Source: Candidatus Harrisonbacteria bacterium RIFCSPHIGHO2_02_FULL_40_20 (GTDB taxonomy: Bacteria > Patescibacteriota > Minisyncoccia > UBA6257 > WO2-44-18). Taken from it: a stretch of 47,335 nt of DNA. Positions 6,565 through 47,335 of this stretch are shown here, in pieces (the first letter of the stretch is position 1; the number at the start of each line of letters is the position of its first letter). The notes beneath the pieces were generated by a model. It saw only the letters and a program-made list of their open reading frames with translations, did not search any database and was not told the origin of the DNA. Location: positions 1 to 47,335 of the forward strand of contig MHJF01000023.1 in assembly GCA_001818675.1 (NCBI GenBank), written 5' to 3'. The position numbers and the translations under genes are program-made.

Positions 6565-6572
6565 AAATGGTT

Positions 6573-6702
6573 ATGGATCCCGTTAGAGGCAACCCATCTA
6601 TGATTTTTGAAAGATTTCTTGATTTTAGGTATAAAAGTCGATTGCCGTTAAAACGGCCGAGTTACGATTGTCTAAAGACAATCTGTCTCTAACGGGATGG
6701 AT
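6573..6702 (+). repeat. Element-1 copy 1: 130-nt cassette bounded by inverted repeats, ending in an ATG
   Basis: 5' ATGGATCCCGTTAGAGGCA pairs with 3' TGTCTCTAACGGGAT. Internal TTGAAA-N17-TATAAA at 6607-6635. Hairpins at 6644-6657 and 6666-6683. Confidence 0.8.
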
Positions 6703-6780
6703 AAAGCATTTAGTTTATTTTTATTAATAATTTTTGCCGGCATTTTGCTGTATTTTTTGCCGTTAGTTTGTAAGCCCTAA
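6697..6780 (+). CDS. possible 27-aa hydrophobic peptide (MDKAFSLFLLIIFAGILLYFLPLVCKP)
   Basis: Its ATG is the terminal ATGGAT of Element-1 copy 1, the same arrangement as the frr and pheS starts. One TM-like segment. The stop lies 4 nt before copy 2. Confidence 0.3.
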   Translation: MDKAFSLFLLIIFAGILLYFLPLVCKP

Positions 6781-6784
6781 GGAT

Positions 6785-6914
6785 ATGGATCCCGTTAGAG
6801 GCAACCCATCTATGATTTTTGAAAGATTTCTTGATTTTAGGTATAAAAGTCGATTGCCATTAAAATGGCCGAGTTACGATTGTCTAAAGACAATCTGTCT
6901 CTAACGGGATGGAT
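6785..6914 (+). repeat. Element-1 copy 2; its terminal ATGGAT is the frr start
   Basis: Identical to copy 1 except G>A at 6859 and C>T at 6866, which are the two partners of one hairpin base pair. Confidence 0.85.
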
Positions 6915-7465: not shown

Positions 7466-7536
7466 TTAGCGACTAGTGCCTAGCGACTAGTCCGCCGAAG
7501 GCGGAATAAACTAGTGGCTAGTGGCTAGTGGCTAGT
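7466..7536. repeat. ACTAGT-type palindromic intergenic repeat (REP-like), site 1
   Basis: TTAGCGACTAGTGCCTAGCGACTAGT, hairpin CCGCCGAAGGCGG, then ACTAGTGGCTAGTGGCTAGTGGCTAGT. Confidence 0.8.
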
Positions 7537-7539
7537 CTA

Positions 7540-8565
7540 ATGATTATCGTATTAGTAATAATTGCCATTTCTATTTTAATTCTTGTTCATGAACTAGGGC
7601 ATTTTTTAGTTGCCAAGAAATTCGGCCTTTTAGTAGAAGAGTTCGGTATTGGTTTTCCGCCAAGATTATTTTCTAAAAAAATCGGCGAAACGGTTTATAG
7701 CGTAAATCTTTTGCCTTTTGGGGGATTTGTAAAAATTTATGGAGAAAATCTAGAAACGGATAGCGCAGATTTGGAAAAAAACAGCCGGGCTTTTTATAAT
7801 CAAAAATCATGGCGGCGATTATTAGTAATTATCGCCGGGGTAGTAATGAATTTTTTTCTTGGTTGGCTGGTAATGTCTGTTATTTTTATGATTGGCGCTC
7901 CGCAATCTTTAGTCATTACTGATGTTGTCGCGGATTCTCCGGCAGTTTTGGCTGGTTTTCAACCGGGCGACCAATTAGCTGGTTTTAAAAAATCCGTCGA
8001 GTTTATAAACTTTATTGATGTTAATAAGGGCAAGGAAATTACATTAGATGTCATTCGCGCAGGCGAAAATTTATCTATTCAGGTGGTGCCGAGGGTTTCG
8101 TCTCCAGTGGGACAAGGGGCATTGGGGATTGCGTTTGCCGAAGCAGGGTTAGAGAAAATGCCTTTTTTCACCAGTCTTTGGACAGGATTAAAAGCATCTG
8201 TGGGAATAGTAGCAATGATTTTCGTTTCCTTATTTCAGCTTTTATTTTCATTATTTACCGAAGGCCGGATTTTAGAGGGATTCGTCGGGCCAATTGGTAT
8301 TTTTGGAGTTGCCAGCCAAGCCGCTGGATTGGGCGTGGTTTATTTGATGCAGTTGATAGGTTTAATTTCATTAAATCTTTTTGTCTTAAACATTTTGCCG
8401 TTTCCGGCTTTAGACGGCGGCCGAATGTTTTTCATTTTGTTAGAAAAAATTAAAGGCAAGCCCCTATCTGTTAATTTTGAACGATCTGCCAATGCTATTG
8501 GCTTTCTAGTTTTATTATTTCTGATGATTGCTGTGACAGTCAGGGATATTATTAAATTATTTTAG
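7540..8565 (+). CDS. rseP: RIP metalloprotease RseP (site-2 protease, M50)
   Basis: HELGHF zinc motif, a central PDZ-like segment, and a C-terminal PALDGGRM motif. I prefer the ATG at 7540 to the GTG at 7528, which lies inside a repeat. Confidence 0.9.
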   Translation: MIIVLVIIAISILILVHELGHFLVAKKFGLLVEEFGIGFPPRLFSKKIGETVYSVNLLPFGGFVKIYGENLETDSADLEKNSRAFYNQKSWRRLLVIIAGVVMNFFLGWLVMSVIFMIGAPQSLVITDVVADSPAVLAGFQPGDQLAGFKKSVEFINFIDVNKGKEITLDVIRAGENLSIQVVPRVSSPVGQGALGIAFAEAGLEKMPFFTSLWTGLKASVGIVAMIFVSLFQLLFSLFTEGRILEGFVGPIGIFGVASQAAGLGVVYLMQLIGLISLNLFVLNILPFPALDGGRMFFILLEKIKGKPLSVNFERSANAIGFLVLLFLMIAVTVRDIIKLF

Positions 8566-13583: not shown

Positions 13584-15417
13584 AGAATCGGTTTTTGACA
13601 GTTATGCCCAAGACTTGGACCATGTGGAATTTCCGCTTTCTCGGAAGGCCTTTATTTTGATTGTTGGTTTAGCGGGATTTTTACTAGCCATAGCTTTGTT
13701 CCGAGTCGCGGCCCTCAATTTATTTAACGGCGTTTTTTATAAAGCTCGGGCTGAAGCCAATGTTAATCGTGAAGTAATGATTCCGGCCTATCGCGGTATT
13801 ATTGTGGATCGCTATGGCGAATCTTTGGTGGAGAACCAGCCATCTTTTAGCGTCTTTGTTAATTTGGCGGAGATTTTGCGTAATACCGAGAATTTTAATG
13901 GGGCGTTGATTAAGTTAGCTGAAGTTTTGGAGGTTAGCGTTGACGACATTTTTTTTAGAATTAATGAGGCCAGCGTGAATCAGAATCTTATTGCTGTTGG
14001 CCGTAATATTTCTCCAGATCAAATTATTGCTTTGGAGAGCTTAAAAATTAAAGGAGTCACTATTGAGGATGACTACGTCCGTTTTTATAAAACGGGGCCA
14101 GTTTTTTCTCATATTTTAGGTTATCCTGGCGAAGTTGATGTGGGTTTAGAGTCAATTTATGATGATCGTTTGCGCGGCCAGAATGGCATTTCTATAATTT
14201 TTGAAAATGTGAAGGGTGAGGGGATTGATAAGAAAATTCTAAGCGAAGCCGTTTCCGGGAAGGAGCTTCAGTTAACCATTGACGCTGGCTTGCAAGAATT
14301 TTTTTATAATCGACTGAATTCCGCGATTCATTCGCTGGGTAGCAAGGGCGGCGTGGGATTAGCTTTGAATCCCCAGAATGGAGAGGTGCTATCTTTAGTA
14401 AGTTTGCCGAGTTATGACAATAATTTATTTGCCCGTTCTGGTAATAGCCAGCAAAAAATTAAGCTTTTAAATGATGCTTCCCAGCCTCTTTTTAATAGGG
14501 CTGTATCCGGCGTATATAATCCAGGATCCACAATTAAACCATTAGTTGCTTTAGCGGCTTTACGCGAGGGCTTAATCACTCCAGACGCGGAAGTATTTTC
14601 CCGCGGTTATATTGAAATTCCTAATCCATATTTCCCGGATCAGCCAAGCAGGTTTGTGGATTGGAAACCGCATGGTTGGGTGGATGTTCATTCCGCTTTG
14701 GCGCGCTCCAGTAACGTTTATTTTTATACTTTAGGCGGGGGGTTGCCAGTGAGTGAGTCTTTGTTGTTACGGGGTTCAATTGGTATCAAGGGCTTGAGAA
14801 TAGAAAAACTGCGAGCTTATTGGCAGAAGTTTTTATTAGATCAGAAAACTGGTATTGATTTGAGCGCGGAGAATTCTGGGTTTTTGCCGGATCCGGAAGA
14901 AAAAGAGAAGCGTACGGGGCAGATTTGGCGAATCGGCGATACTTACAACGTGAGCATTGGTCAGGGGGATCTTTTAGTTACGCCGTTGGAGCTTTTGAAT
15001 TTTATTAGTTCCATTGCTAATGGAGGGAAAATATATCAGCCGCATCTTATAAGTGAGACACAGCCAAAAGTTTTATTGGATTATTCAGAATGGGCTAACG
15101 AAATTAAAGAAGTGCGGCTGGGAATGGAGGATGCGGTAAGCAAGTGGTACGGCACCGCAAGTCTTTTAAGTTCTTTGCCCATTGTGGCCGCCGCCAAAAC
15201 CGGAACCGCGCAAATTCAGAATAATACCAAGACGAACGCTTTTTTCGTTGGTTATTTGCCCACTGAAGCTTTGGCGAACGCGGGCGCGCCCCTAGATAAG
15301 CAGATAGCTATTTTAGTTTTAGTAGAGAATGCCCGTGAAGGTGGTTTAAACGCAGTTCCGGTCGCGAAGGATGTTTTGGAATGGTATTATTACAATAGGT
15401 TAGCGACTAGTGATTAG
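13555..15417 (+). CDS. mrdA: penicillin-binding protein 2 (transpeptidase)
   Basis: 620 aa with SxxK (GSTIKP), SxN (SSNVYF) and KTG (AKTGTA) motifs. Follows mreD. Confidence 0.9.
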   Translation: MPQNRDLDFEESVFDSYAQDLDHVEFPLSRKAFILIVGLAGFLLAIALFRVAALNLFNGVFYKARAEANVNREVMIPAYRGIIVDRYGESLVENQPSFSVFVNLAEILRNTENFNGALIKLAEVLEVSVDDIFFRINEASVNQNLIAVGRNISPDQIIALESLKIKGVTIEDDYVRFYKTGPVFSHILGYPGEVDVGLESIYDDRLRGQNGISIIFENVKGEGIDKKILSEAVSGKELQLTIDAGLQEFFYNRLNSAIHSLGSKGGVGLALNPQNGEVLSLVSLPSYDNNLFARSGNSQQKIKLLNDASQPLFNRAVSGVYNPGSTIKPLVALAALREGLITPDAEVFSRGYIEIPNPYFPDQPSRFVDWKPHGWVDVHSALARSSNVYFYTLGGGLPVSESLLLRGSIGIKGLRIEKLRAYWQKFLLDQKTGIDLSAENSGFLPDPEEKEKRTGQIWRIGDTYNVSIGQGDLLVTPLELLNFISSIANGGKIYQPHLISETQPKVLLDYSEWANEIKEVRLGMEDAVSKWYGTASLLSSLPIVAAAKTGTAQIQNNTKTNAFFVGYLPTEALANAGAPLDKQIAILVLVENAREGGLNAVPVAKDVLEWYYYNRLATSD

Positions 15418-15485
15418 TGCTTAGCGATTAGTAAATTTAAAATTATTTTTTTACTAGTGGCTAGTTACTAGTGGCTAAACACTAA
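15399..15485. repeat. ACTAGT-type palindromic intergenic repeat, site 2
   Basis: TTAGCGACTAGTGATTAGTGCTTAGCGATTAGT ... ACTAGTGGCTAGTTACTAGTGGCTAA. It overlaps the last codons of mrdA. Confidence 0.8.
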
Positions 15486-15489
15486 TTTT

Positions 15490-16482
15490 ATGAATTCCGA
15501 ATTGAGGCAAGATTTAGTTTCCGGCGATTGGATTGTAGTCGCCCCAGGGCGCGCTTGGCGGCCTAATTTTTTTGTTAAAAACAAATCTAAAAGGAAGCCC
15601 GATCTTATTAAGGGTTGCCCATTTGAGCATCCGCAGTTTTCTAAGAATGGAAAACCGGATTTAATATATCCTAATCATCAGGATTGGGTGGTTCAGGTTT
15701 TTCCTAATAAATATCCGGCGGTGATTCAGAAAAAGAAAAATATTCGCGCTGGGGTTTCTAAGCATGGCCCATACTCAATATTTCCCGGAGTTGGCTATCA
15801 TGATTTAGTAGTTACTCGGGATCATTATAAAAATTTCCCTCGACTTTCTCGTGACAAGGCGAATTTAGTTTTTCGCGCTTTTCAGGATCGGTATTTAGTT
15901 TTAAGCGACCATGATTACATTGACTATGTTTCTATTTTGCATAATTGGGGGCCAACCGCTGGCGCTTCGGTTTTTCACCCGCATTACCAGATTATTTCTA
16001 TCCCGATGGTGCCGCCGGACATTAACCACTCCTTAACTGGTTCAGCGCGCTATTTTAAAAGCCATAGAAAATGCGTGCATTGCGTGATGATTGATTTGGA
16101 GTTGAAAGAAAAAAAAAGAATTATATTTGAGAATGAGAAAGCGGTAGCTTTTGCGCCTTTTGTTTCCCGCGGCCCTTTTGAGGTGCGGGTATTTCCTAAA
16201 AGTCATTTGCCTTATTTTGAGAATACCTACGATGAAGATATGGAGTCGGTGGTGGAGGCGCTTCAGTATTCTTTGAGATCTCTTGAGAAAAATCTAGGAG
16301 ACCCGGATTATAATTTTTTTATTCATACTTCGCCCATTAAAGATAAGGAGAAATATCGCCATTATCATTGGCATATTGAGATTACGCCCGTAATTTCTAT
16401 TCGCGGCGGCTTTGAGTGGGGGACGGGCATTGATATTAATGTGATTGATCCAGATAATGCCGCTAAGATATTGAGAGTTTGA
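15490..16482 (+). CDS. galactose-1-phosphate uridylyltransferase family (HIT superfamily) nucleotidyltransferase
   Basis: 330 aa with FHPHYQI (HxHxQ active site) and a second half-domain HYHWHIEI. Confidence 0.7.
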   Translation: MNSELRQDLVSGDWIVVAPGRAWRPNFFVKNKSKRKPDLIKGCPFEHPQFSKNGKPDLIYPNHQDWVVQVFPNKYPAVIQKKKNIRAGVSKHGPYSIFPGVGYHDLVVTRDHYKNFPRLSRDKANLVFRAFQDRYLVLSDHDYIDYVSILHNWGPTAGASVFHPHYQIISIPMVPPDINHSLTGSARYFKSHRKCVHCVMIDLELKEKKRIIFENEKAVAFAPFVSRGPFEVRVFPKSHLPYFENTYDEDMESVVEALQYSLRSLEKNLGDPDYNFFIHTSPIKDKEKYRHYHWHIEITPVISIRGGFEWGTGIDINVIDPDNAAKILRV

Positions 16483-16841: not shown

Positions 16842-16913
16842 GAAGGCTAAACCCCGAATTTAAAATTTGGGGTCGCCCGATCAAAACGCAGTTTTGATTT
16901 AGGGAGGTGACAG
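16842..16913 (+). promoter_or_regulatory. Element-2 leader (variant II) upstream of a small-protein operon
   Basis: GAAGGCTAAAC, a variable hairpin, then CGATCAAAAC-GCA-GTTTTGATTTAGGGAGG, then the ATG at 16914. Confidence 0.6.
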
Positions 16914-17093
16914 ATGATGAATGTTATGTTGACGAAGCTGTTGGGATTTTTTCTGCTTCTTACTTTTGTGGTTTCTTTAACTGCCGCGATTTATGTTCCT
17001 TATTGTCGGAATAAATATAAGCCTAAGAAATCAAAAAATAATAAGGATGATGATTGCGGTTGCGGCGATAAAGGAGGTTGTTCTAATGACTGA
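16914..17093 (+). CDS. hypothetical 59-aa membrane protein with basic and Cys-rich tail
   Basis: Below the ORF-track size cut-off. GGGAGG SD lies 6 nt upstream. Sequence: MMNVMLTKLLGFFLLLTFVVSLTAAIYVPYCRNKYKPKKSKNNKDDDCGCGDKGGCSND. Confidence 0.5.
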   Translation: MMNVMLTKLLGFFLLLTFVVSLTAAIYVPYCRNKYKPKKSKNNKDDDCGCGDKGGCSND

Positions 17094-17340: not shown

Positions 17341-17370
17341 TTGGTCAATAAATTGTTATATTTCTTATTA

Positions 17371-17498
17371 ATGGATCCCGTTAGAGGCAATTAAAATAAT
17401 GATGGCAAACAATACGATTCAATATATTAAAGCGTCGGTGGTTCTTAAAATGGCCGAGTTACGGTCGCCTTTGGCGACCTGCCTCTAACGGGATGGAT
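17371..17498 (+). repeat. Element-1 copy 3; its terminal ATGGAT is the pheS start
   Basis: Same termini (ATGGATCCCGTTAGAGGCA ... TGCCTCTAACGGGATGGAT) and same TTAAAATGGCCGAGTTACG block. The 7-bp hairpin at 17463-17479 has an unrelated sequence but the same position. Confidence 0.8.
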
Positions 17499-18494
17499 TT
17501 TGATGTTTTAAGGCGTAATGTTTTGGAGGCGATTAAGAAAACTCAAGATGTTAAGGGTTTAGAGCAGATTCGTATTAAGTATTTGGGGCGCCAGGATGGC
17601 GAACTTATTAAGATTTTGCGTTCGTTAAAAGATTTATCGGTTGAGGAAAAAAGAAAGCTAGGACCGGCGGCTAATTTTTTGCGTAACGAATTGGAAGCCG
17701 CATTTATAAATAAGCTTGAAAATTTAAAATTAAAAATTAGAAATTCCCAATCTAATTTAGATGTTACTCTGCCCGGAAAGAAGGTTCCGGTTGGCCATTT
17801 ACACCCGCTGACTTTAATGGAAAACCGGATTCGGGAAATTTTTCAAAGTTTAAGTTTTTCCGTAGTGGAAGGCCCGGAAGTAGAAAGCGATTACTATAAT
17901 TTTGATGCTTTAAATATTCCAGCTAATCATCCAGCTCGAGATATGTGGGATACCTTTTGGCTTCGTCAAAAAGTTCAAAGTTCAAAGTTCAAAGTTCAAA
18001 GTCTCTTATTGCGTACCCACACTAGCCCGGTTCAAATTCGTTATATGGAAAAGCATCAGCCGCCGTTTCAAATAATTGTGCCCGGCCGGGTTTTTCGTTA
18101 TGAGGCAACGGATGCCACTCACGAGATTAATTTTCATCAGATTGAGGGTTTGATGGTGGGGGAGGATGTTTCTTTGGCGAATTTTAAATATATTATTGAA
18201 GAGTTTTTAAAGCAATTATTTGGAAAAAATATTCATTTTCGATTTAGGCCCAGTTATTTCCCTTTTACTGAACCCAGTTTAGAAGTAGATATTCAGCTTG
18301 GCGGCAAATGGTTAGAAGTGATGGGCGCTGGAATGGTTCATCCCAAAGTTTTTGACGCTGTGAAATATAATTCAAAAGAAGTTAGGGGATTTGCTTTTGG
18401 CCTTGGTTTGGAAAGATTGGCAATGATTAAATATAAGATTGATGATATCCGATTATTTTATTCAGGTGATTTAAGATTTATAAAACAATTCTGA
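17493..18494 (+). CDS. pheS: phenylalanyl-tRNA synthetase alpha subunit
   Basis: 333 aa with HPARDMWDTFW, LLRTHTSPVQIR, FRPSYFPFTEPS and GFAFGLGLERLAM. Confidence 0.95.
   Translation: MDFDVLRRNVLEAIKKTQDVKGLEQIRIKYLGRQDGELIKILRSLKDLSVEEKRKLGPAANFLRNELEAAFINKLENLKLKIRNSQSNLDVTLPGKKVPVGHLHPLTLMENRIREIFQSLSFSVVEGPEVESDYYNFDALNIPANHPARDMWDTFWLRQKVQSSKFKVQSLLLRTHTSPVQIRYMEKHQPPFQIIVPGRVFRYEATDATHEINFHQIEGLMVGEDVSLANFKYIIEEFLKQLFGKNIHFRFRPSYFPFTEPSLEVDIQLGGKWLEVMGAGMVHPKVFDAVKYNSKEVRGFAFGLGLERLAMIKYKIDDIRLFYSGDLRFIKQF
17970..18002 (+). repeat. heptanucleotide tandem repeat (AAAGTTC x4 plus a partial unit) inside pheS
   Basis: Four perfect 7-nt units at 17970-17997 plus a partial unit. Translated as KVQSSKFKVQS between conserved WDTFW and LLRTHTSP. 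Confidence 0.9.
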
Positions 18495-20477: not shown

Positions 20478-20501
20478 AAGCCCTGCCTGCCGGCAGGCAG
20501 G
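20478..20501. repeat. GC-rich palindromic 24-mer, intergenic copy
   Basis: AAGCCCTGCCTGCCGGCAGGCAGG. The core 20 bp, CCTGCCTGCCGGCAGGCAGG, is a perfect palindrome. Confidence 0.9.
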
Positions 20502-25561: not shown

Positions 25562-25577
25562 AAATAAAGGTGTGGCT

Positions 25578-25727
25578 CCCCGCACTAATTTTGCGGGTAA
25601 TGCTTGGGCGATCCGCTTCGCCCATTAAGGGATGTGTCTATTCGACACACGCGGATCGCGACCTTTACAATAACCATCGTTTAAACTACAATTTATTATA
25701 AATTATCTAGGCAAAATTAGTGCGGGG
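25578..25727. repeat. 17-bp perfect inverted repeat enclosing 116 nt in the nusG-rplK spacer
   Basis: CCCCGCACTAATTTTGC at 25578-25594 and GCAAAATTAGTGCGGGG at 25711-25727. An inner 9-bp helix pairs GCGATCCGC with GCGGATCGC. Confidence 0.85.
25664..25692 (+). promoter_or_regulatory. candidate rplK promoter
   Basis: TTTACA-N17-TACAAT, lying inside the inverted-repeat-bounded spacer element. Confidence 0.5.
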
Positions 25728-25767
25728 TGCTCATTTTTGTAGTCAATCGCTCCGCTCTTGAACAAAA

Positions 25768-26193
25768 ATGGCAAAACCAATCAAAACAACCTTAAAGCTT
25801 CAGATTCCGGCGGGCGCCGCGAACCCGGCTCCTCCGATTGGGCCTGCTTTGGGCCAACACGGCGTGAATATTGCTGAATTTTGTAAGCAGTTTAATGAAG
25901 CCACTAAAACTATGACGGGCGATATTGTTCCTGCGGAAATTACGATTTATGAAGATCGCAGTTTTACTTTTAAATTAAAAACTCCGCCCGCTTCAGCTTT
26001 ATTAAAAAAGGCTGCTGGAATTGAAAAGGGATCAGGCAATCCAATTCTTACTAAAGTTGGCAAGGTTACTAAAGAAGATTTACGTAAAATTGCAGAGCGA
26101 AAGATGCCCGATTTAAATACCGACAATGTTGAGGCAGCGATGCGCATTATTGCTGGCACTGCCAAGAATATGGGAATAGAGGTGATAGAGTAG
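25768..26193 (+). CDS. rplK: 50S ribosomal protein L11
   Basis: 141 aa with [25 protein letters not shown]. Confidence 0.96.
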
Positions 26194-26354
26194 AGGATTT
26201 TGGTATTTTCGGAGATATGCTTTTCGGAACCAGAATAATTAGCTCCAGCGGGCTAATTTTCTTTTCCCTCGGCGATTTTTCGTTCGTTGAAAATTATAAC
26301 GAACGAGCCATGTAAAATCGCCTCCGGGACATTCCGAGCCAGCATACCATCCTC
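26193..26354 (-). ncRNA. Element-3 copy b: candidate structured RNA of unknown class
   Basis: Its reverse complement aligns with 45076-45223. Conserved unpaired blocks and covarying helices. A minus-strand TTAGCT-N16-TATTAT lies at 26394-26367. Confidence 0.45.
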
Positions 26355-26374
26355 AACCAACATCCAATAATATT

Positions 26375-26403
26375 TTGACTTTTTACATAGCTAATGCTAT
26401 TAT
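26375..26403 (+). promoter_or_regulatory. candidate promoter of the Nudix gene and its leader
   Basis: TTGACT-N17-TATTAT, about 22 nt upstream of the Element-2 leader. Confidence 0.6.
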
Positions 26404-26424: not shown

Positions 26425-26491
26425 GAAGGCTAAACCTCGAATTTTCGAGGTCGCTCGATCAAAACCTCGTTTTGATTTAGGGAGATGGCAA
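26425..26491 (+). promoter_or_regulatory. Element-2 leader (variant II) upstream of Nudix hydrolase
   Basis: GAAGGCTAAAC, hairpin CCTCGA/TCGAGG, then CGATCAAAAC-CTC-GTTTTGATTTAGGGAG. Lies downstream of the promoter at 26375-26403. Confidence 0.65.
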
Positions 26492-27037
26492 ATGGCCAAA
26501 GTTTGCGATCACACGAGCGTGGGTTTGCTTTTATCATATCAGAATAACAATGATTGGCAGTTACGTTTTTTAATGATAGAGCGGCATAATTATCCTCAAG
26601 CAATAGCTTTGCCAGCTGGGCATTGTGATGGCGACGATTTCTATAAAGCTATACGGCGTGAAGGTAAGGAAGAAGTCGGGATAGATCTCGGAAATTTAAA
26701 TTTGAATTTTGTTGCAAGAATAGATAATCCCTGTAAACGTCAGGATGGATCTCACCATATTTGGGGAATTTTTGAGGGATATTTTTATAGTGGTACTGTA
26801 GCTGCTGGCAGCGATGCTAAAAGATTTTTCTGGGCCACTCTTGACGAGTTAAGAAAATTTTCTCAAAGAACCGAATTTTTTATGAAGAAATATTCTGTTG
26901 ATTGGCAGGACGTTGGTAAGTTGACTAAGGCCATTTTTGGCGATCCACAGAATCCTCAAGTTGATCCGGATTGGCAAAAGGAAATGGGCCTTGAGCCGGT
27001 GTGGTATTATATACTGAAGAAATTGATGTATATTTAG
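26492..27037 (+). CDS. Nudix hydrolase with C-terminal extension
   Basis: Starts at MAKVCDH, after the shared hairpin-SD leader. Nudix box-like GHCDGDDFYKAIRREGKEEVGI. The ORF-track start at 26423 lies inside the leader. Confidence 0.75.
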   Translation: MAKVCDHTSVGLLLSYQNNNDWQLRFLMIERHNYPQAIALPAGHCDGDDFYKAIRREGKEEVGIDLGNLNLNFVARIDNPCKRQDGSHHIWGIFEGYFYSGTVAAGSDAKRFFWATLDELRKFSQRTEFFMKKYSVDWQDVGKLTKAIFGDPQNPQVDPDWQKEMGLEPVWYYILKKLMYI

Positions 27038-27122: not shown

Positions 27123-27160
27123 ATATCTAAGTGCTATCCTATAGGATAGCACTTAGATAT
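27123..27160. repeat. 38-bp perfect palindrome
   Basis: ATATCTAAGTGCTATCCTA|TAGGATAGCACTTAGATAT. I verified by hand that it equals its own reverse complement. Confidence 0.95.
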
Positions 27161-27281: not shown

Positions 27282-27377
27282 CTAAAACAATTTGCTTTGC
27301 AAATTGTTCGCCCCTAAATGGGCGAGCCCATCGGGCTATAGCCGATCAAAACCCCGTTTTGATTTAGGGAGGCATAT
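27282..27377 (+). promoter_or_regulatory. Element-2 leader (variant I) upstream of dCMP deaminase
   Basis: 10-bp hairpin AACAATTTGC/GCAAATTGTT, TCGCCC-CTAAAT-GGGCGA, GATCAAAAC-CCC-GTTTTGATT, then AGGGAGG and the GTG. Confidence 0.65.
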
Positions 27378-27938
27378 GTGGATAAAACCGAACGTCCGCA
27401 GTGGGACGAAATTTTTCTTTTAATGGCCGCGGTGTTTTCATCTCGGGGGTCTTGCGATCGTTTACTGACTTCCTGTTTTTTAGTGAAGAATAAACGGATT
27501 GTTGGAGTTGGTTATAATGGCGCGGTGGCCGGTCTTTCTAATTGTGATGAAGTGGGGCATTTAATGGTTGATAATCATTGCGTTCGGACTATTCATGGCG
27601 AAGATAATGCTGTAAATAATGCCGTTGCTGACTTAGATGGCGCCACGGCTTATGTTATTGCCACTCCTTGTTTAGATTGCGTTAAGAATCTTTTACAAAA
27701 AGGGATTAAGCGCATTGTCTATGTGGGTATTTACGCAAATTCTAAAGGATTAGAGCATATTGAGAGTTTTTGTAAGGAAAAGGCCGTGGTTTTAGATCAT
27801 TTCAGCGATCCAAGAATTCTTCTGTCAATCTTGCGAAAAGTGCTTAATCGTTTGCGTGGTCCGGGGGGAATTTTAAAAGATATTCCCGAAGAAGAAATAT
27901 TTTTATTGTTAAGGGGCAATAATAATTTTTCAACTTAA
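27378..27938 (+). CDS. dCMP deaminase (ComEB/Dcd-type zinc deaminase)
   Basis: GTG start 6 nt after GGGAGG. Contains WDEIFLLMA, HGEDNA and PCLDC zinc motifs. Confidence 0.88.
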   Translation: MDKTERPQWDEIFLLMAAVFSSRGSCDRLLTSCFLVKNKRIVGVGYNGAVAGLSNCDEVGHLMVDNHCVRTIHGEDNAVNNAVADLDGATAYVIATPCLDCVKNLLQKGIKRIVYVGIYANSKGLEHIESFCKEKAVVLDHFSDPRILLSILRKVLNRLRGPGGILKDIPEEEIFLLLRGNNNFST

Positions 27939-33884: not shown

Positions 33885-33972
33885 TGGTTAGCGACTAGTG
33901 TTGAGTGACTAACCCGACTAATTATTTATTGTCCGTCGGACTAGTGGCTAACCACTAGTGGCTAGTCGCTGA
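33885..33972. repeat. ACTAGT-type palindromic intergenic repeat, site 3
   Basis: GGTTAGCGACTAGTG ... GGACTAGTGGCTAACCACTAGTGGCTAGTCGCTGA, between thrS and dnaE. Confidence 0.8.
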
Positions 33973-36900
33973 TTAAAGCGCTATTGCTTCTTCGCAAATA
34001 AGCTTGGCTTCACCATCGCGCATAGAAATTTTTCCTCTAATGCAAACTGGCCCATTTTCTATCCAAACAGGGATGCTTCGAGCAAGAGTTTCGGGGAAAA
34101 CTACTATTTCCATCGCATCATTAAAATCTTCTACTTTCGCGAACAACATTGGTTTTCCGGTTTTGGTAATGATTTTTTGCAGTTTAGAAATGACCCCGGC
34201 AATTATTTGATAGCCGCTGGTTTCTGCGCGCACTTCTTTAATGGGCCGCGCTTTTAAGGTTTCTATTTTTTGGCGGTAACTGTTTAAGGGATGGTCGGAG
34301 ATATATAATCCGAGCAGTTCTTTTTCCCAAGTTAATTTTTCTTGGGATGTCGCTGGCGCCACCTTTTTGAGCCTTAAGGATTGCGAATTTGATCCTGTGC
34401 GGCCGAATAATCCGATTTGACTGCTCACAGACTCTTTTTTAAGTGCGCTGTGCCACTTGAGAACTTCTTCTATATTAGAAACTATTTGATTGCGTTCTAT
34501 TCCTAGAGAATCTAAGGCGCCGGATTTTGCCAGGCTTTCCATAGATTTTTTATTGAAGTCTTTATGTTGGACTCGGTTTAATAATTCAGTGAGATTGACA
34601 AATGGCCCGCTTCGTTCTCTCGCTTCAATGATCGCGCCTACTATCGCAGTGCCAATATTTTTAATAGCCGTCAGCCCAAAGCGGATATTATTTTCTTCAC
34701 AGGTAAAGGCGCTGGCGCTTTTGTTGACGTCCGGCGGCAATACTTGAATATTCATTTTTTTGCATTCGCTGATTAAAAAAGCGATACGCTCTACGTCGCC
34801 AGAATCTGCATTCAGCAAGCTAGCCATAAATTCCGAAGGATAATTGGCTCTTAAATAGGCGGTTTGATAGCCAATCATCGCATAACAAGCGGCATGGCTG
34901 CGGTTAAAGCCATAGCGGGCAAAAGGAGGGAAGAGGTCCCAGATGGCTTTAGCCGATTTGGCGTCGATCCCGTTTTTAAGCATTCCGTTAATTAATCTTT
35001 CGCTTTGTTTATCCAGCAGTTCTTTAATTTTTTTACCAATAGCTTTTCGCAGAGTATCGGCTTCCGCCAAAGTAAATCCTGCTAAATCTCTGGCAATGCG
35101 CATCATTTGTTCTTGATAGATTCCTACGCCGTAGGTAGTTTTTAAAATTGGTTCTAATTTTGGATGGACATACTCAATTTTTTCTTTGCCGTGTTTTCTT
35201 TTGATATAGCTTGGGATAAGTTCTATCGGTCCGGGGCGATACAGCGCCACCATCGCGATAATGTCCTCAATTTCGGTAGGCTTTAATTCTTTGAGATATC
35301 TTCTCATACCCGAAGATTCTAATTGAAATACTCCGGTAGTTTCGGCGGCTTGAAGCATAGCAAAAGTTTTTTTGTCATCCAGCGGCAAGCTAGAGATATT
35401 TATTTTTTTACCGGTACGTTCTTGGATTAATCGGAGGGTGTCTTCAATAATTGTTAAGTTTTTTAATCCCAGAAGATCAATTTTTAAGAGGCCAATATCT
35501 TCCACGCTATGCATTTCAAACTGGGTAACAATCACATCTTTGGCTTTTTGGAGCGGTAGGTATTCGGTTAGGTCTTTGGCGGCAATGACAGTGCCACAAG
35601 CATGGACAGAAGCATGGCGGACTACGCCCTCAAAATGTTTGGCTATATCTATAATTTTTTTTGCATCAGCATCACCGTTATAAAGCTTTGTGAATTCCGG
35701 TATTAATTTTAATGCTTCATCAATATCAGTATTAAAGGGAATTAGTTTTGCGATTTTATCGCATAACGCAAGATTAATTCCTAAGGCTCGTCCAACATCA
35801 CGGACAGAAAGCCGCGCCGCCATTGTTCCAAAAGTAATTATGTTGGCAACTCGGTTTTCCCCGTATTTTTCTTTTAAATATCCAAAAACTTCATCGCGCC
35901 GACGGTCAGTAATATCTACGTCAATGTCAGGCATTTGAATGCGATCGGGGTTCAAGAATCTTTCAAAAAGCAGGTCGTATTTTAACGGGTCAATATCAGT
36001 AATGCCGAGTATGTAGGCCAGTAAACTTCCTGCCGCAGATCCTCGGCCCGGACCAACAACGATATTGCGGTCTTTTGCCCAGTTAATAAAGTCTTGAACT
36101 ATTAAGAGATAATCCTCAAATCCGGTTTTTTCAATTACTCCAAGTTCATAATCGAGCCTTTCTTGGATTTTAGGCGTGATTTCAGAGAATCTTTGCCCCA
36201 CTCTTTCTCGAATAAGTTCTTTAAGATAATTGATTCCAGATTGGCCGTTTGGAGTATCAAATTTTGGCAATAGGACTTGGTGAAGTTTTAATTCAACATT
36301 ACATTGGTCAGAGATTTTTGCAGTATTGGCAACCGCTTCTGGAGTATCTTTGAAGAGCTCTGCCATTTCTTCTGGAGACGTCATGGAAAAATCGTCGTCT
36401 TTAAGAGTCAGCCGATCAGTATCCGTAACTTTATTGCCAGTTTGAATGGCGAGAAAAATATCGTGATAAGTCGCGTCTTCTTTTTTTAAATAATGGATAT
36501 CTTGGGTGGCGACAAGGGGGATGTTGGTTTTTTTAGAAATTTGAATCAAACCATTATGGACCTTGATGGTTTCTTTAATTCCGGGATGATGTCCAATTTC
36601 AATGAAAAAATTTCCCGCGCCAAAAATATTTAAGTATTCTAGCGCTACCTCTTCTGCTTTTTGCGCTTTTCCCTGTAGAAGCATTCGGGACACTTCGCCT
36701 GATAAACATCCGGAAAGCGCAATCAATCCTTCCGAATGTTGTTTTAGGATTTCTTTACTCATCTGGGGTTTGTAATAAAAACCGTGCAGATGGCTATGGG
36801 TGACTAATTTTAAAAGATTTTTCCAGCCAGTTTCATTTTTGGCTAAAAGTATAAGATGGAAATATTTATTTTGCGGATCGTCGGACGCGACATAGGCCTC

Positions 36901-39326: not shown

Positions 39327-39393
39327 GCCAATAGGGTTTAGGGCGTAGCCAATAGGTTTACTAGTGGCTATACCTTAGTCGCTAGTGGCTAAT
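39327..39393. repeat. ACTAGT-type intergenic repeat, site 4
   Basis: GCCAATAGGGTTTA / GCCAATAGGTTTA, then ACTAGTGGCTATACCTTAGTCGCTAGTGGCTAA, between nusB and rnc. Confidence 0.7.
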
Positions 39394-39396
39394 CGA

Positions 39397-40077
39397 ATGG
39401 ATTTCTCAAAACTCGAAGAAAAAATTAGTTATAAGTTTAAAGACAGAGATTTGCTTAAAGAATCTTTGACGCACCGCTCGTATCTTAATGAAAATCCTTC
39501 TTGGCATTTGCCTAATAATGAAAGATTGGAATTTTTAGGGGACGCGGTTTTAGAATTGGCTACTACGGAAGAATTGTATAATCGATATCCGGAGTCTCAA
39601 GAGGGAGAGTTGACTAGTTATCGCGCGGCGCTAGTTAATTATCAAATGATGGCTACTATTGCCAAAGAAATTGGCTTAGAAAATTTTGTTTTGTTGTCGC
39701 GTGGAGAAGCTAAAGATATGGGGCGCGCTCGTGATGTGATTTTAGCGAACGCGATGGAAGGATTGATCGGCGCTATTTATTTAGATTCAGATTATTTAGG
39801 GGCTAAAAAATTTGTGAAAGCTTTTGTGCTAAGCCATTTGGCAGAAGTTATAGCTAAGGGATTATATAAAGACGCAAAAAGTTTATTGCAGGAAAAATCT
39901 CAGGCGGATTTGAAGATTACCCCGAATTATAAAGTGATTTCGGAAAAAGGGCCGGATCATTCCAAGATTTTTGAAGTGGGAGTATTTTTAAATGATAAAA
40001 TGGTTGCTATCGGTAGTGGCCAGTCTAAGCAAGACGCGGAAGTTGAGGCGGCCAAGAGGGCGCTGGAAAATTTATAA
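39397..40077 (+). CDS. rnc: ribonuclease III
   Basis: Signature ERLEFLGDAVLE and a C-terminal dsRBD. I prefer the ATG at 39397 to the GTG at 39385, which lies inside a repeat. Confidence 0.93.
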   Translation: MDFSKLEEKISYKFKDRDLLKESLTHRSYLNENPSWHLPNNERLEFLGDAVLELATTEELYNRYPESQEGELTSYRAALVNYQMMATIAKEIGLENFVLLSRGEAKDMGRARDVILANAMEGLIGAIYLDSDYLGAKKFVKAFVLSHLAEVIAKGLYKDAKSLLQEKSQADLKITPNYKVISEKGPDHSKIFEVGVFLNDKMVAIGSGQSKQDAEVEAAKRALENL

Positions 40078-44936: not shown

Positions 44937-45075
44937 TCCCTGCTTTCATCCTCACTTTTTCTTAGGTTAAATCTTATTTAGGTCAGCCTATTTTTCGCAC
45001 TAGCGTGATGGAGGGGTCGAATTTTTTATCTTCCCACCTCCACTTTTGCTTTGGTACCGCATAAGACAGGCGAAG

Positions 45076-45223
45076 ATCTTGTTTCGCCTTTTCGTAGGGA
45101 ACATCCCGCAGCTTGGCTGAGCTTGGTGCCCGACAAATGTCGGGATCAGCCGAGCGAGGGAGAAGAAATTTTTACCGCTGGAGTAAAAATATTCTGGTTC
45201 CCGTAGAAAAGGCGGGACAAGAT
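45076..45223 (+). ncRNA. Element-3 copy a: candidate structured RNA of unknown class
   Basis: A 27-nt closing helix (45076-45102 with 45197-45223; 24 pairs including 2 G-U) encloses a long arm (45114-45151) and a hairpin with loop CGCTGGA (45169-45189). Confidence 0.45.
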
Positions 45224-45231
45224 TAATTCAT

Positions 45232-45260
45232 TTGACAGGCATCCAAAGAAAAAGTATCAT
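45232..45260 (+). promoter_or_regulatory. candidate rpsP promoter (predicts a leaderless or near-leaderless mRNA)
   Basis: TTGACA-N17-TATCAT. In-frame ATGs lie 8 and 14 nt after the -10. Confidence 0.55.
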
Positions 45261-45273
45261 CTTTCTTATGTTA

Positions 45274-45591
45274 ATGTTAAAGCTTCAACGCACCGGCAAA
45301 AAGCATCAGGCGAGTTTTCGCCTCATTGTTGGAGAAAAAAGGCATAAATTAATTGGTGAACAGACCGAATATTTGGGTTGGTACACTCCGGGCCAACATA
45401 AACACGCATTTGATAAGGAACGGATTCAGCATTGGCTGAAAGTTGGCGCCAAACCCAGCGATACAGTGCATAACCTTTTAGTTGCTGCCGGCATTATTCA
45501 GGGCAAAAAAATTGCTGTACATAAACAGCCCAAAAAGAAAGAGGGCGATGCCGTTAAAGCTGCTCCGGCCGTTGAAAAACCGGCTGCTTAA
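45274..45591 (+). CDS. rpsP: 30S ribosomal protein S16
   Basis: MLKLQRTGKKHQASFRLIV matches the S16 N-terminus. An alternative in-frame ATG lies at 45268. The ORF-track start at 45232 lies inside the promoter. Confidence 0.88.
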   Translation: MLKLQRTGKKHQASFRLIVGEKRHKLIGEQTEYLGWYTPGQHKHAFDKERIQHWLKVGAKPSDTVHNLLVAAGIIQGKKIAVHKQPKKKEGDAVKAAPAVEKPAA

Positions 45592-45970: not shown

Positions 45971-45974
45971 TAAG

Positions 45975-46253
45975 TTAGAACCCATCTTTAAAATACCCCC
46001 CAGTTCGCGTTGCGAGATATTTTCTCATATCCACAAGGCGCGACGAGGAAGTTGTAGCTTAAGCTACAATGACGAAGTCGCAACGCAGAGGGACGAGAAA
46101 ATAGCCGCAACCCACAAGGGATATGGTCAATTTCCGCAATACCATCGTCGACTCCTCCTCAATGTGCTTAAAGCACAATCTCGTCGTCGCTCCTTGGTTT
46201 TACGAAAATTGATCTATATCGCGAGCGGGAGTATTTTAAAGATGGGTTCTAGA
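45975..46253. other. ~280-nt highly structured region closed by a helix of at least 21 bp
   Basis: TTAGAACCCATCTTTAAAATAC at 45975-45996 pairs with GTATTTTAAAGATGGGTTCTA at 46231-46251. Internal hairpins include TTGTAGC-TTAA-GCTACAA and TGTGCTT-AAA-GCACA. Confidence 0.7.
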
Positions 46254-46739: not shown

Positions 46740-47335
46740 ATGAAATTTGATATATTAACTATCTTTCCTAATATTTTCCAGTCTTATTTTAACGAATCAA
46801 TTTTAAAACGCGCTCAGAAAAATGGGCTTATTAAAATTGCATCGCACAACTTGCGCAATTTTACCGCAGATAAACATCATAAAGTTGATGACAGCCCTTA
46901 CGGCGGAGGACCAGGAATGGTTATAAAAATTGAACCGATTTTTAAAGCTGTTCAGCATTTAAAAGTTAAAAGCCATAAAGCCCTGCCTGCCGGCAGGCAG
47001 GTAAAAACTAGAGTAATCTTATTTTCAACACGAGGTAAAAAGTTAGATTCCAAAGTTGCTAAAAGGCTTTCTAAATATGATCAGCTGATATTAATTTGCG
47101 GGCGTTATGAGGGCGTAGATGAGCGAGTAGCGCAATACATTGCTGACGAAGAAATTTCTATTGGAGATTATGTATTATCTGGTGGCGAATTGCCGGCAAT
47201 GATTTTAGTTGAAGCGGTTTCCCGTTATCTTCCAGGCGTTTTAGGTAAATATGAATCTCTAGAAGATATTAAGGGTAGTTACCCCGTATATACAAAGCCG
47301 GAGATATTTAAACCAAGAACCCCGCCAAGGGCGAG
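46740..47335 (+). CDS. trmD: tRNA (guanine37-N1)-methyltransferase (3' end cut by window edge)
   Basis: Open to the window end and absent from the ORF track. Contains [36 protein letters not shown] and [15 protein letters not shown]. Confidence 0.92.
46978..47001. repeat. GC-rich palindromic 24-mer, copy inside trmD
   Basis: Identical 24-mer, in frame, encoding KALPAGRQ in a variable TrmD loop. Confidence 0.9.

Follow-up and report, generated by a model that had tools for sequence, protein, structure and literature searches.

In this study, we examined a 47,335-nucleotide stretch of DNA from Candidatus Harrisonbacteria bacterium RIFCSPHIGHO2_02_FULL_40_20 (contig MHJF01000023.1; the whole stretch is called the window below) and an RNA-like element that it carries at the 3' end of rplK, the gene for ribosomal protein L11. 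We found that this element, here called copy B, genuinely belongs, in minus-strand sense, to a so far uncatalogued group of structured RNA elements that was found only in the candidate phyla radiation (CPR)/Patescibacteria, bacteria that account for a large part of bacterial diversity and are nearly all uncultured, and from which, to our knowledge, hardly any noncoding RNAs beyond the universal ones have been described. Read on the minus strand, copy B folds into a long closing helix (P1) topped by a three-way junction with the arms P2 and P3, at -64.5 kcal/mol and a z score of -6.6 relative to dinucleotide shuffles (region 26190-26360). The same fold is found on the plus strand in a second copy, copy A (45060-45230; -81 kcal/mol, z -9.2), and an earlier note made from the sequence had described the two as sharing one architecture. 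This claim is borne out by the folds, by motifs that recur in the same order (GGAAYRTCCCGSAG ... CGAGGGARAAGAAA ... CCGCTGGAG ... ATTCTGGTTCC, also written as GGAAYRUCCCGSAG, CGAGGGARAAGAAA, CCGCUGGAG, and AUUCUGGUUCC), by compensated stems, and by the scores of the covariance model described below: the sequences of P1, P2, the P2 tip, and P3 diverge between the copies, with pairing preserved throughout. Because the stems are compensated, and because the window has just two matches to the composite pattern CCGCTGGAG-N(3-12)-ATTCTGGTTCC, compared to none in 100 shuffles, the likeness of the two copies is not due to chance, and the earlier observation on sequence and coordinates is confirmed. 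With a column identity of 67%, copies A and B are an old, diverged pair.

The two copies belong to a much larger set. A scan of a genome collection (one genome per species) with the pattern GGGANAAGAAN{4,20}CGCTGGAN{4,20}TTCTGG gave at least 117 loci. About half of the matches listed were chance matches inside coding sequence of unrelated bacteria; among the matches listed, the complete architecture was present at 47 other loci, and all 47 lie in metagenome-assembled genomes (MAGs) of CPR/Patescibacteria, assigned to Yanofsky-, Colwell-, Kerfeld-, and Brennerbacteria, Paceibacterota, Saccharibacteria, the "Patescibacteria group," and the "Parcubacteria group." For an alignment of 48 sequences, RNAalifold gave a consensus with 38 pairs, of which 28 show compensatory changes; the alignment also served to build a covariance model of 124 positions, R1, which gives members 43 to 133 bits and non-CPR chance matches to the pattern at most 24 bits, and which also recovers additional copies that do not match the search pattern. 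Homologs derived from the pattern number 49 among the matches listed, all of them in Patescibacteria MAGs, and scan and model together added about 58 copies to the two in the window, all from CPR/Patescibacteria and often with 8 or more in one genome. When the alignment was extended to 58 sequences, standard pairs filled 96.9% of the cells, compared to 71% after shuffling, and both sides changed in 32 of the 38 pairs; the covariation score was 0.666, compared to 0.19 in shuffles and 0.06 to 0.14 when partners were slid by 1 to 3 columns. Since GGGA.AAGAA, CGCTGGA, and TTCTGG were imposed by the pattern on most members, the invariance of these motifs is partly an effect of the search, yet the 5' half (AUCCCGCAG, GCUUGGU, and CGA), which the pattern did not force, is equally conserved. 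Within the 47-kb window, an R1 scan with filters off found no copies beyond A and B, the next-best match scoring 13.4 bits.

Full hairpins of the members measure 117 to 184 nt (median, ∼150), with a P1 of 25 to 40 bp. An internal loop of non-Watson-Crick type, in most cases tandem GA/GA or GUA/GUA, interrupts P1 5 to 6 pairs below the junction, whose strands measure 2, 3, and 1 nt. P2 consists, in this order, of a G(C/G)A / GA internal loop, a covarying stem, a 7- to 8-nt bulge (GCUUGGU), and a variable tip hairpin, and P3 of a strictly Watson-Crick stem with the loop CGCUGGA, which is usual, not universal, among members that only the model detected. Across distant CPR classes, ∼45 nucleotides in unpaired or junction positions show strong conservation. 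Copy B holds the conserved unpaired motifs (GGA/GA, ACAUGGCU, and CCGCUGGA), its P2 arm is tipped by a distal hairpin (CGUUCGU/ACGAACG), and its P3 stem (AAUUAGC/GCUAAUU) is unlike that of copy A, with the pairing kept; the coordinates of its parts are collected in the table. An alternative outermost pairing, GAGGAU/AUCCUC, would carry the hairpin to position 26193, where it touches the rplK stop codon, so that the gap between the stop and the 3' end of copy B is 0 to 7 nt.

Table. Coordinates of copy B, its parts and immediate neighborhood, and of copy A, in the window
Feature	Position	Strand	Basis or remark
rplK (ribosomal protein L11)	25768-26193	+	Pfam Ribosomal_L11_N + Ribosomal_L11; TAG stop 26191-26193
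Copy B, entire hairpin (P1 outer stem to P1 outer stem)	26200-26360	-	Fold and sequence
Copy B, core (all 124 R1 positions)	26216-26346	-	83.1 bits, E 1.8e-23; to be read in view of copy B being one of the 48 sequences used to build R1
Copy B, three-way junction	26225-26336	-	P1b closure: CGGAAU 26336-26331 with GUUCCG 26230-26225
Copy B, P2 arm	26266-26328	-	Fold, alignment, covariation
Copy B, P2 base CCC/GGG	26328-26326 with 26268-26266	-	Followed by GGA/GA internal loop
Copy B, P2 stem GGCGAUUUU/AAAAUCGCC	26322-26314 with 26279-26271	-	
Copy B, P2 bulge ACAUGGCU	26313-26306	-	Variant of the family GCUUGGU; UGG kept
Copy B, P3 arm AGAAAAUUAGC/GCUAAUUAUUCU	26232-26262	-	Fold, alignment
Copy B, P3 conserved loop CCGCUGGA	26251-26244	-	
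Candidate -35/-10, TTAGCT-N16-TATTAT	26367-26394	-	8/12 consensus; below promoter-scan threshold
Nudix promoter-like site, TTGACT-N17-TATTAT, extended TG	26375-26403	+	Promoter scan
Copy A, entire hairpin	45067-45234	+	R1 core 45088-45211; 120.7 bits

Variation within the family gives some insight into how the parts may fit together. In a divergent subtype, the P2 base is UGC/GCA and the P3 base AGAU/AUCG, both changes being compensated; other variants include a minimal version (L037:7599), a copy with a hairpin inserted within the P3 loop (L101:1459), and one in which the GCUUGGU bulge and the CGCUGGA loop are both missing (L064:2919), a joint loss which hints that the two work together. A mutual-information scan further revealed that columns 17 and 114 of alignment A3, which are the final base of the 5' strand of P1b and the middle purine of the junction, covary in a Watson-Crick manner (C:G in 32 sequences, U:A in 21, with 4 exceptions), and this suggests a junction pair or base triple beyond the nested secondary structure; the equivalents in copy B are U 26331 and the middle A of GGGA-A-AAG near 26264. 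We rejected a pseudoknot that would join the P3 loop to the UCCCGC strand, as the divergent subtype alters the UCCCGC strand and leaves the loop unchanged.

Several lines of evidence bear on which strand is sense. Of 54 members folded both ways, 52 are more stable in the sense assigned here (means of -77.0 compared to -67.4 kcal/mol, an average gain of 9.6 kcal/mol; Wilcoxon p 2e-10), and copy B itself reaches -58.3 kcal/mol (z -4.9) on the plus strand. G-U cells outnumber A-C cells in the family by 74 to 20, or by 53 to 20 without the disputed inner closing pair. Moreover, the sense strand bears tandem G-A and purine-rich loops, both typical of folded RNAs, and the loops of the complement would be pyrimidine-rich. 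On the strength of these data, the minus strand is probably the sense strand of copy B, and the proposal in the earlier note that the two copies are oriented in opposite genomic directions is supported. The argument on which the note had based it fares worse. At the inner end of the closing helix, copy A has a C-G pair (GGGAAC/GUUCCC) where copy B has U-G (CGGAAU/GUUCCG), and the U-G was argued to be tolerated only in minus-strand sense; across the 58 sequences this pair is C-G in 35 and U-G in 21, and the pair is not clean strand evidence because its C/U column is the one that covaries with the middle junction purine. GNRA or UNCG tetraloops at the P2 tip were uninformative as a strand marker, since the common C-GAA-G loop mirrors to C-UUC-G.

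The placement of copy B is typical of the family. The element lies antisense between rplK and a plus-strand gene for a Nudix hydrolase, a layout (rplK forward, element reverse, Nudix forward) that is the commonest arrangement among members, and no minus-strand gene follows copy B in the gene calls of the window. In 37 of 50 members, the gene on the 3' side is convergent with the element, with a median gap of 22 nt and 14 gaps of at most 7 nt, so that the position directly after the rplK stop, tail to tail with a convergent gene, agrees with the family norm; on the 5' side, median gaps are 111 to 176 nt. Between co-directional genes the element is antisense in 18 cases and sense in 7 (23 and 8 if shorter open reading frames [ORFs] are allowed), ratios that are indicative only because the members are not independent. 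The neighbors are unrelated housekeeping genes, including those for RuvC, YebC, EF-P, S9, S16, L11, L19, IF-3, SerRS, HolA, Mfd, PBP1A, MurB, UvrB, and GreA. No protein family recurs among the neighbors, and no transposase, reverse transcriptase, or recombinase recurs within 2.5 kb. Copy A, for its part, sits downstream of a canonical terminator and ends right at the -35 box of rpsP; this gene has no Shine-Dalgarno sequence and is apparently leaderless, its TTGACA-N17-TATCAT promoter (11/12 consensus; window positions 45232-45274) ending 7 nt before the ATG at 45268.

The earlier note had also suggested a look at the rplK 3' end in related genomes, and the outcome is mostly negative. Copy B is identical in 8 contigs of near-identical strains, among which single-nucleotide polymorphisms near the element are too few to gauge selection. 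In a sister species with identical L11 (two contigs, L004 and L010) and in the closest other relative (L129; 88% L11 identity), however, a plain hairpin with a U-tract follows rplK, and among 80 metagenomic rplK loci (64 to 88% identity, 328 kb) R1 finds a match in one, L140, where a diverged element (49.5 bits) begins 10 nt past the stop codon, again antisense. Gene content downstream of rplK differs greatly across this lineage. Because the element is absent from 79 of the 80 relatives and from the sister species, it is not a conserved partner of rplK; instead, it fills a slot that is held by a terminator in relatives, and has landed or been kept there at least twice.

The element has no counterpart among catalogued RNA families. 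None of the 4227 models of Rfam 15, which include riboswitches, ribozymes, 6S RNA, signal recognition particle (SRP) RNA, RNase P, transfer-messenger RNA (tmRNA), Y RNA, T-box, and r-protein leaders, gave a match at gathering score in the window or in four member loci, and at E values of up to 5 to 10 both copies and six member loci gave scattered chance matches, to microRNA and small nucleolar RNA precursors and, in one case, to a group II domain-5 fragment (15 bits). The Rfam models of known self-cleaving ribozyme classes did not match either. No tRNA or tmRNA was found in the window or beside members, save an unrelated tmRNA in L016, and neither a pattern scan of viral contigs nor BLASTN against phage and plasmid records gave a match. 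Our search of the literature on noncoding RNA in CPR, Patescibacteria, Parcubacteria, and Saccharibacteria found no description, which is absence of evidence only. Three known types could be rejected: (i) a riboswitch or other 5' leader, since the downstream neighbor is co-oriented in only 13 of 50 members and the neighbors are functionally unrelated; (ii) a canonical intrinsic terminator, since no U-tract follows the closing helix on either strand in the family; and (iii) an integron attC site, since GGGAAC...GTTCCC (RRRAAC/GTTYYY) departs from the required RYYYAAC...GTTRRRY on both strands, and the flanking genes (rplK, Nudix, and rpsP) are not cassettes. In being recognized by conservation and covariation, and in coming from uncultured lineages, the element is akin to the orphan motifs of the Breaker and Weinberg type now in Rfam (raiA, HEARO, and MDR-NUDIX), but it differs from them in having no Rfam 15 match, in not being a 5' leader, and in being tied neither to a gene class nor to a neighboring protein gene. 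MDR-NUDIX, suggested by the Nudix gene that adjoins copy B, is absent among the Rfam matches, and the sense of the CPR element is opposite to the Nudix gene.

From its fold, covariation, preferred strand, restriction to the CPR, dispersed intergenic distribution, and placement, we infer a function that we favor tentatively, as possible rather than probable: the element may be a dispersed, cis-acting RNA module of gene boundaries, with a junction that docks a factor. Local action is favored because the element occurs in high copy number and in degenerate variants, has no link to gene function, and shows an orientation bias at gene ends; action on transcripts heading into the 3' end of a gene is favored because the conservation at the RNA level lies on that strand. 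At copy B, transcription running leftward from the rplK-Nudix spacer, started either at the weak TTAGCT/TATTAT site or in the back-to-back Nudix promoter region, would fold into the hairpin, and the closing helix would set and shield the transcript end just short of rplK, keeping antisense transcription out of the gene. At the same time, the complement of copy B would furnish the mRNA of rplK with a stable hairpin at its 3' end, a substitute for the canonical terminator of relatives, and the conserved junction, which carries two GCU(U)GG motifs, would dock a putative conserved CPR factor. Termination by the hairpin is conjecture, because neither strand carries a U-tract.

A number of observations weigh against such a module. 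The family is patchily spread, dense in some genomes, and represented by 1 copy in the 328 kb of relatives' rplK loci, and the homogeneity of its sequences within a genome also fits a selfish repeat. A hairpin after a stop codon, with a spacer of ∼100 nt, is equally expected of a plus-strand terminator or 3' untranslated region (3'-UTR) element. The best σ70-like sites up to 60 nt upstream of members have mean scores of 6.57 (sense side) and 6.50 (antisense side), and, as noted above, a U-tract is missing. As to the strand, the 20 A-C cells cannot be neglected, and folding of the complementary strand remains strong; the A-C cells, and the avoidance of wobble by P3 in either sense (1 G-U and 4 A-C in 744 cells), could mean that the complementary strand also matters. 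Bidirectional intrinsic terminators of convergent genes, which are similar to the element in forming a stable hairpin between transcription units, on both strands and in the terminator slot, differ from it in two respects: the closing helix here is flanked by no U- or A-tract, and the hairpin of 120 to 185 nt bears an ornate conserved junction that is not needed for termination alone.

Somewhat unlikely, in our estimation, is that the members are stand-alone genes for trans-acting small RNAs with their own promoters, in which the junction of a rod-like RNA would bind a protein or ligand, as in 6S, Y, and SRP RNAs, and the closing helix would merely double as an end signal common to the convergent gene. 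Such genes would account for the conservation of the ∼45 unpaired and junction nucleotides across distant CPR classes, for the paired 5' and 3' ends, and for the independence from any gene function, and the 5' spacer of 100 to 200 nt leaves room for a promoter. Decent promoter-like sites do end ∼7 nt before P1 in some members (e.g., TTGATT-16-AATAAT in L019), and the earlier note had assigned copy B a candidate minus-strand promoter of its own. The corresponding sequence is indeed present, would start transcription at the first paired bases of copy B, and is back-to-back with the Nudix promoter-like site, but its match to the consensus is at chance level and is not backed by enrichment in the family: σ70-like sites scoring at least 9 number 3 on the sense side and 3 on the antisense side, and the positional profile shows no concentration of -10 matches just upstream of P1, with a mild A/T enrichment in the last ∼12 nt before it. 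Independent initiation is thus possible for copy B; it cannot be the rule for the whole family, because several members are wedged between two stop codons without space for a promoter (e.g., L050, where both gaps are -3 nt). A density of tens of copies per Mb, with degenerate, minimal, and loop-inserted ones among them, would moreover be unusual for a trans-acting housekeeping RNA, and most close relatives lack the element.

We also consider it unlikely that the element is a selfish dispersed repeat without host function, mobilized in trans by an enzyme that reads the folded junction as RNA or single-stranded DNA and accumulating at gene ends in whichever orientation is least harmful to the host, although its genomic behavior has much of a repeat. 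At least 8 copies each are present in the Kerfeldbacteria MAG JACPGL01 and the Yanofskybacteria MAG MGJF01, and ∼311 kb of element-bearing 8-kb blocks, each fetched for one copy, contained 8 extra copies (∼26/Mb). Three copies, two of them back-to-back, lie in a 2-kb stretch without long ORFs (L101; MAG binchicken_co38_350, 1-2070), members also cluster in L018, L020, L037, and L120 of Yanofskybacteria MGJF01, a standard and a divergent-subtype copy share several of the 8-kb blocks, and many copies are found on short contigs or at contig ends, as is usual for repeats. The copies of one genome have P2 and P3 sequences in common, and the syntenic site in another genome bears that genome's own version, as seen in L067 and L094 behind a PD-(D/E)XK-like gene. 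Near-absence around rplK in the 80 relatives, presence or absence between species with identical L11, and independent occupation of the same site in L140 also fit a mobile repeat. However, the element has no conserved terminal inverted repeats; a miniature inverted-repeat transposable element was rejected, since the P1 ends differ among copies and target-site duplications are not in excess (longest shared flank word, mean of 4.78 compared to 4.72 in controls). Further points against a selfish repeat are the lack of a recurring mobility enzyme nearby, the lack of matches in phage and plasmid collections, the age and divergence of the two copies in the window, and, across CPR classes, a degree of loop and junction conservation, with full compensation of the stems, that exceeds what mobility by a DNA enzyme needs.

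Repetitive extragenic palindromes and the mosaic elements built from them (REP/BIME), enterobacterial repetitive intergenic consensus sequences (ERIC, or IRU), and BOX elements likewise occur in many copies per genome, in intergenic regions at gene 3' ends and between convergent pairs; they form stable hairpins in transcripts, vary in copy number between lineages, are homogeneous within genomes, and use the terminator slot. They are, however, simple or imperfect palindromes conserved within a genus or family, whereas the CPR element keeps a nonpalindromic three-way junction with compensated stems across distant classes and does not conserve its ends, and no link to a RAYT transposase, as known for REP-type repeats, was seen among its neighbors within 2.5 kb. 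The element resembles dispersed intergenic repeats in its genomic behavior and riboswitch-grade structured RNAs in its conservation.

It is quite improbable that the plus strand is the functional one, with copy B serving as a 3'-UTR terminator, stabilizer, or stop-proximal regulator of rplK and the minus-strand fold being its mirror image. Such a role would suit an element that begins 0 to 10 nt past the rplK stop, where relatives hold a terminator, and the abutting gene is opposite to the inferred sense in 37 of 50 members, as it would be for a sense 3'-UTR element. The plus strand of copy B also folds well, P3 avoids wobble in both senses, and the complement of the internal P3 followed by UUCUUUUCCC is flagged as terminator-like, the sole part of the plus strand to be so. 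The stability, wobble, and loop composition of the family nevertheless favor the minus sense; in addition, no real U-tract follows the whole hairpin on the plus strand, the seven members between co-directional genes that are sense-oriented do not suit a 3'-UTR role, and copy A lies downstream of a terminator that is already canonical.

A new catalytic or ligand-sensing RNA, that is, a self-cleaving ribozyme or aptamer, is highly improbable, for although the compact junction with its invariant junction and loop nucleotides, the fully covarying stems, the pair or triple implied by columns 17 and 114, and the joint loss of bulge and loop in L064:2919 would become it, no ribozyme or riboswitch model matches, the position is not that of a 5' leader, and the neighboring genes are functionally incoherent. 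In a speculative version, the two UGGN motifs of the element (GCUUGGU and CGCUGGA) would pair with tRNA 3'-NCCA ends. T-box leaders occur in multiple copies per genome and have a conserved UGGN in a bulge or loop; compared to them, the CPR element lacks an Rfam T-box match, a specifier loop, an antiterminator, and the 5'-leader position.

The window contains several other repeated or structured sequences. Between nusG and rplK lies a long hairpin unrelated to copy B (25575-25730, plus strand; 20-nt arms, 95% complementary; -73.6 kcal/mol, z -6.8), which contains the promoter-like sites of rplK and, at 25632-25641, a 10-nt indel between strains; the sister species has a 70-nt spacer there. A hairpin of ∼280 nt (45973-46251; 25-nt arms, 96% complementary; plus strand, -118 kcal/mol and z -11.5; minus strand, -125 kcal/mol) sits between a KH-domain gene and the next gene, inside the conserved rpsP-trmD ribosomal operon. 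A structured repeat of ∼134 nt, with the arms GGATCCCGTTAGAGGC / GCCTCTAACGGGATGG, has three copies (6569-6702, 6781-6914, and 17367-17502), two of them 212 nt apart. According to the R1 scan, the long hairpins at 25575-25730, 45973-46251, and 6569-6914 are not members of the family. Three start codons, including those of the mutually flanking Nudix and dCMP-deaminase genes, are directly preceded by a 5'-leader motif, GATCAAAAC-NNNN-GTTTTGATTTAGGGAGG, in which a hairpin is fused to the Shine-Dalgarno sequence (16866-16925, 26444-26503, and 27331-27390) and which may be a common translational control element. Short-repeat arrays of the CTAGTGGCTAGT type at four intergenic sites (7466-7553, 15407-15496, 33888-33983, and 39357-39403) look like operator sites of one DNA-binding regulator. 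An identical, terminator-like 24-nt G+C-rich palindrome, AAGCCCTGCCTGCCGGCAGGCAGG, recurs at two distant gene ends (20478-20501 and 46978-47001), and a perfect 38-bp palindrome is located at 27123-27160.

The family adds to the biology of the CPR a group-wide, multicopy, and strongly covarying RNA element, found neither in Rfam 15 nor in the literature searched, which suggests a probably important side of CPR life that has yet to be described. R1 provides an immediate means of annotating these elements, which break CPR assemblies. As a functional gene-end module, or as the RNA component of a ribonucleoprotein, the element would show how minimal genomes delimit their transcription units or lead to a new RNA-protein machine; as a selfish repeat, it would be unusual in being constrained at the level of the RNA fold. 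There is, finally, a small chance that we are dealing with a new CPR-specific class of RNA, a high-copy, orientation-dependent boundary module whose junction would recruit a factor to end, cleave, or sense transcripts, or would itself be catalytic or bind tRNA 3' ends through its UGGN motifs. In that case, the CPR would punctuate their genomes in a way for which cultured bacteria offer no known example.

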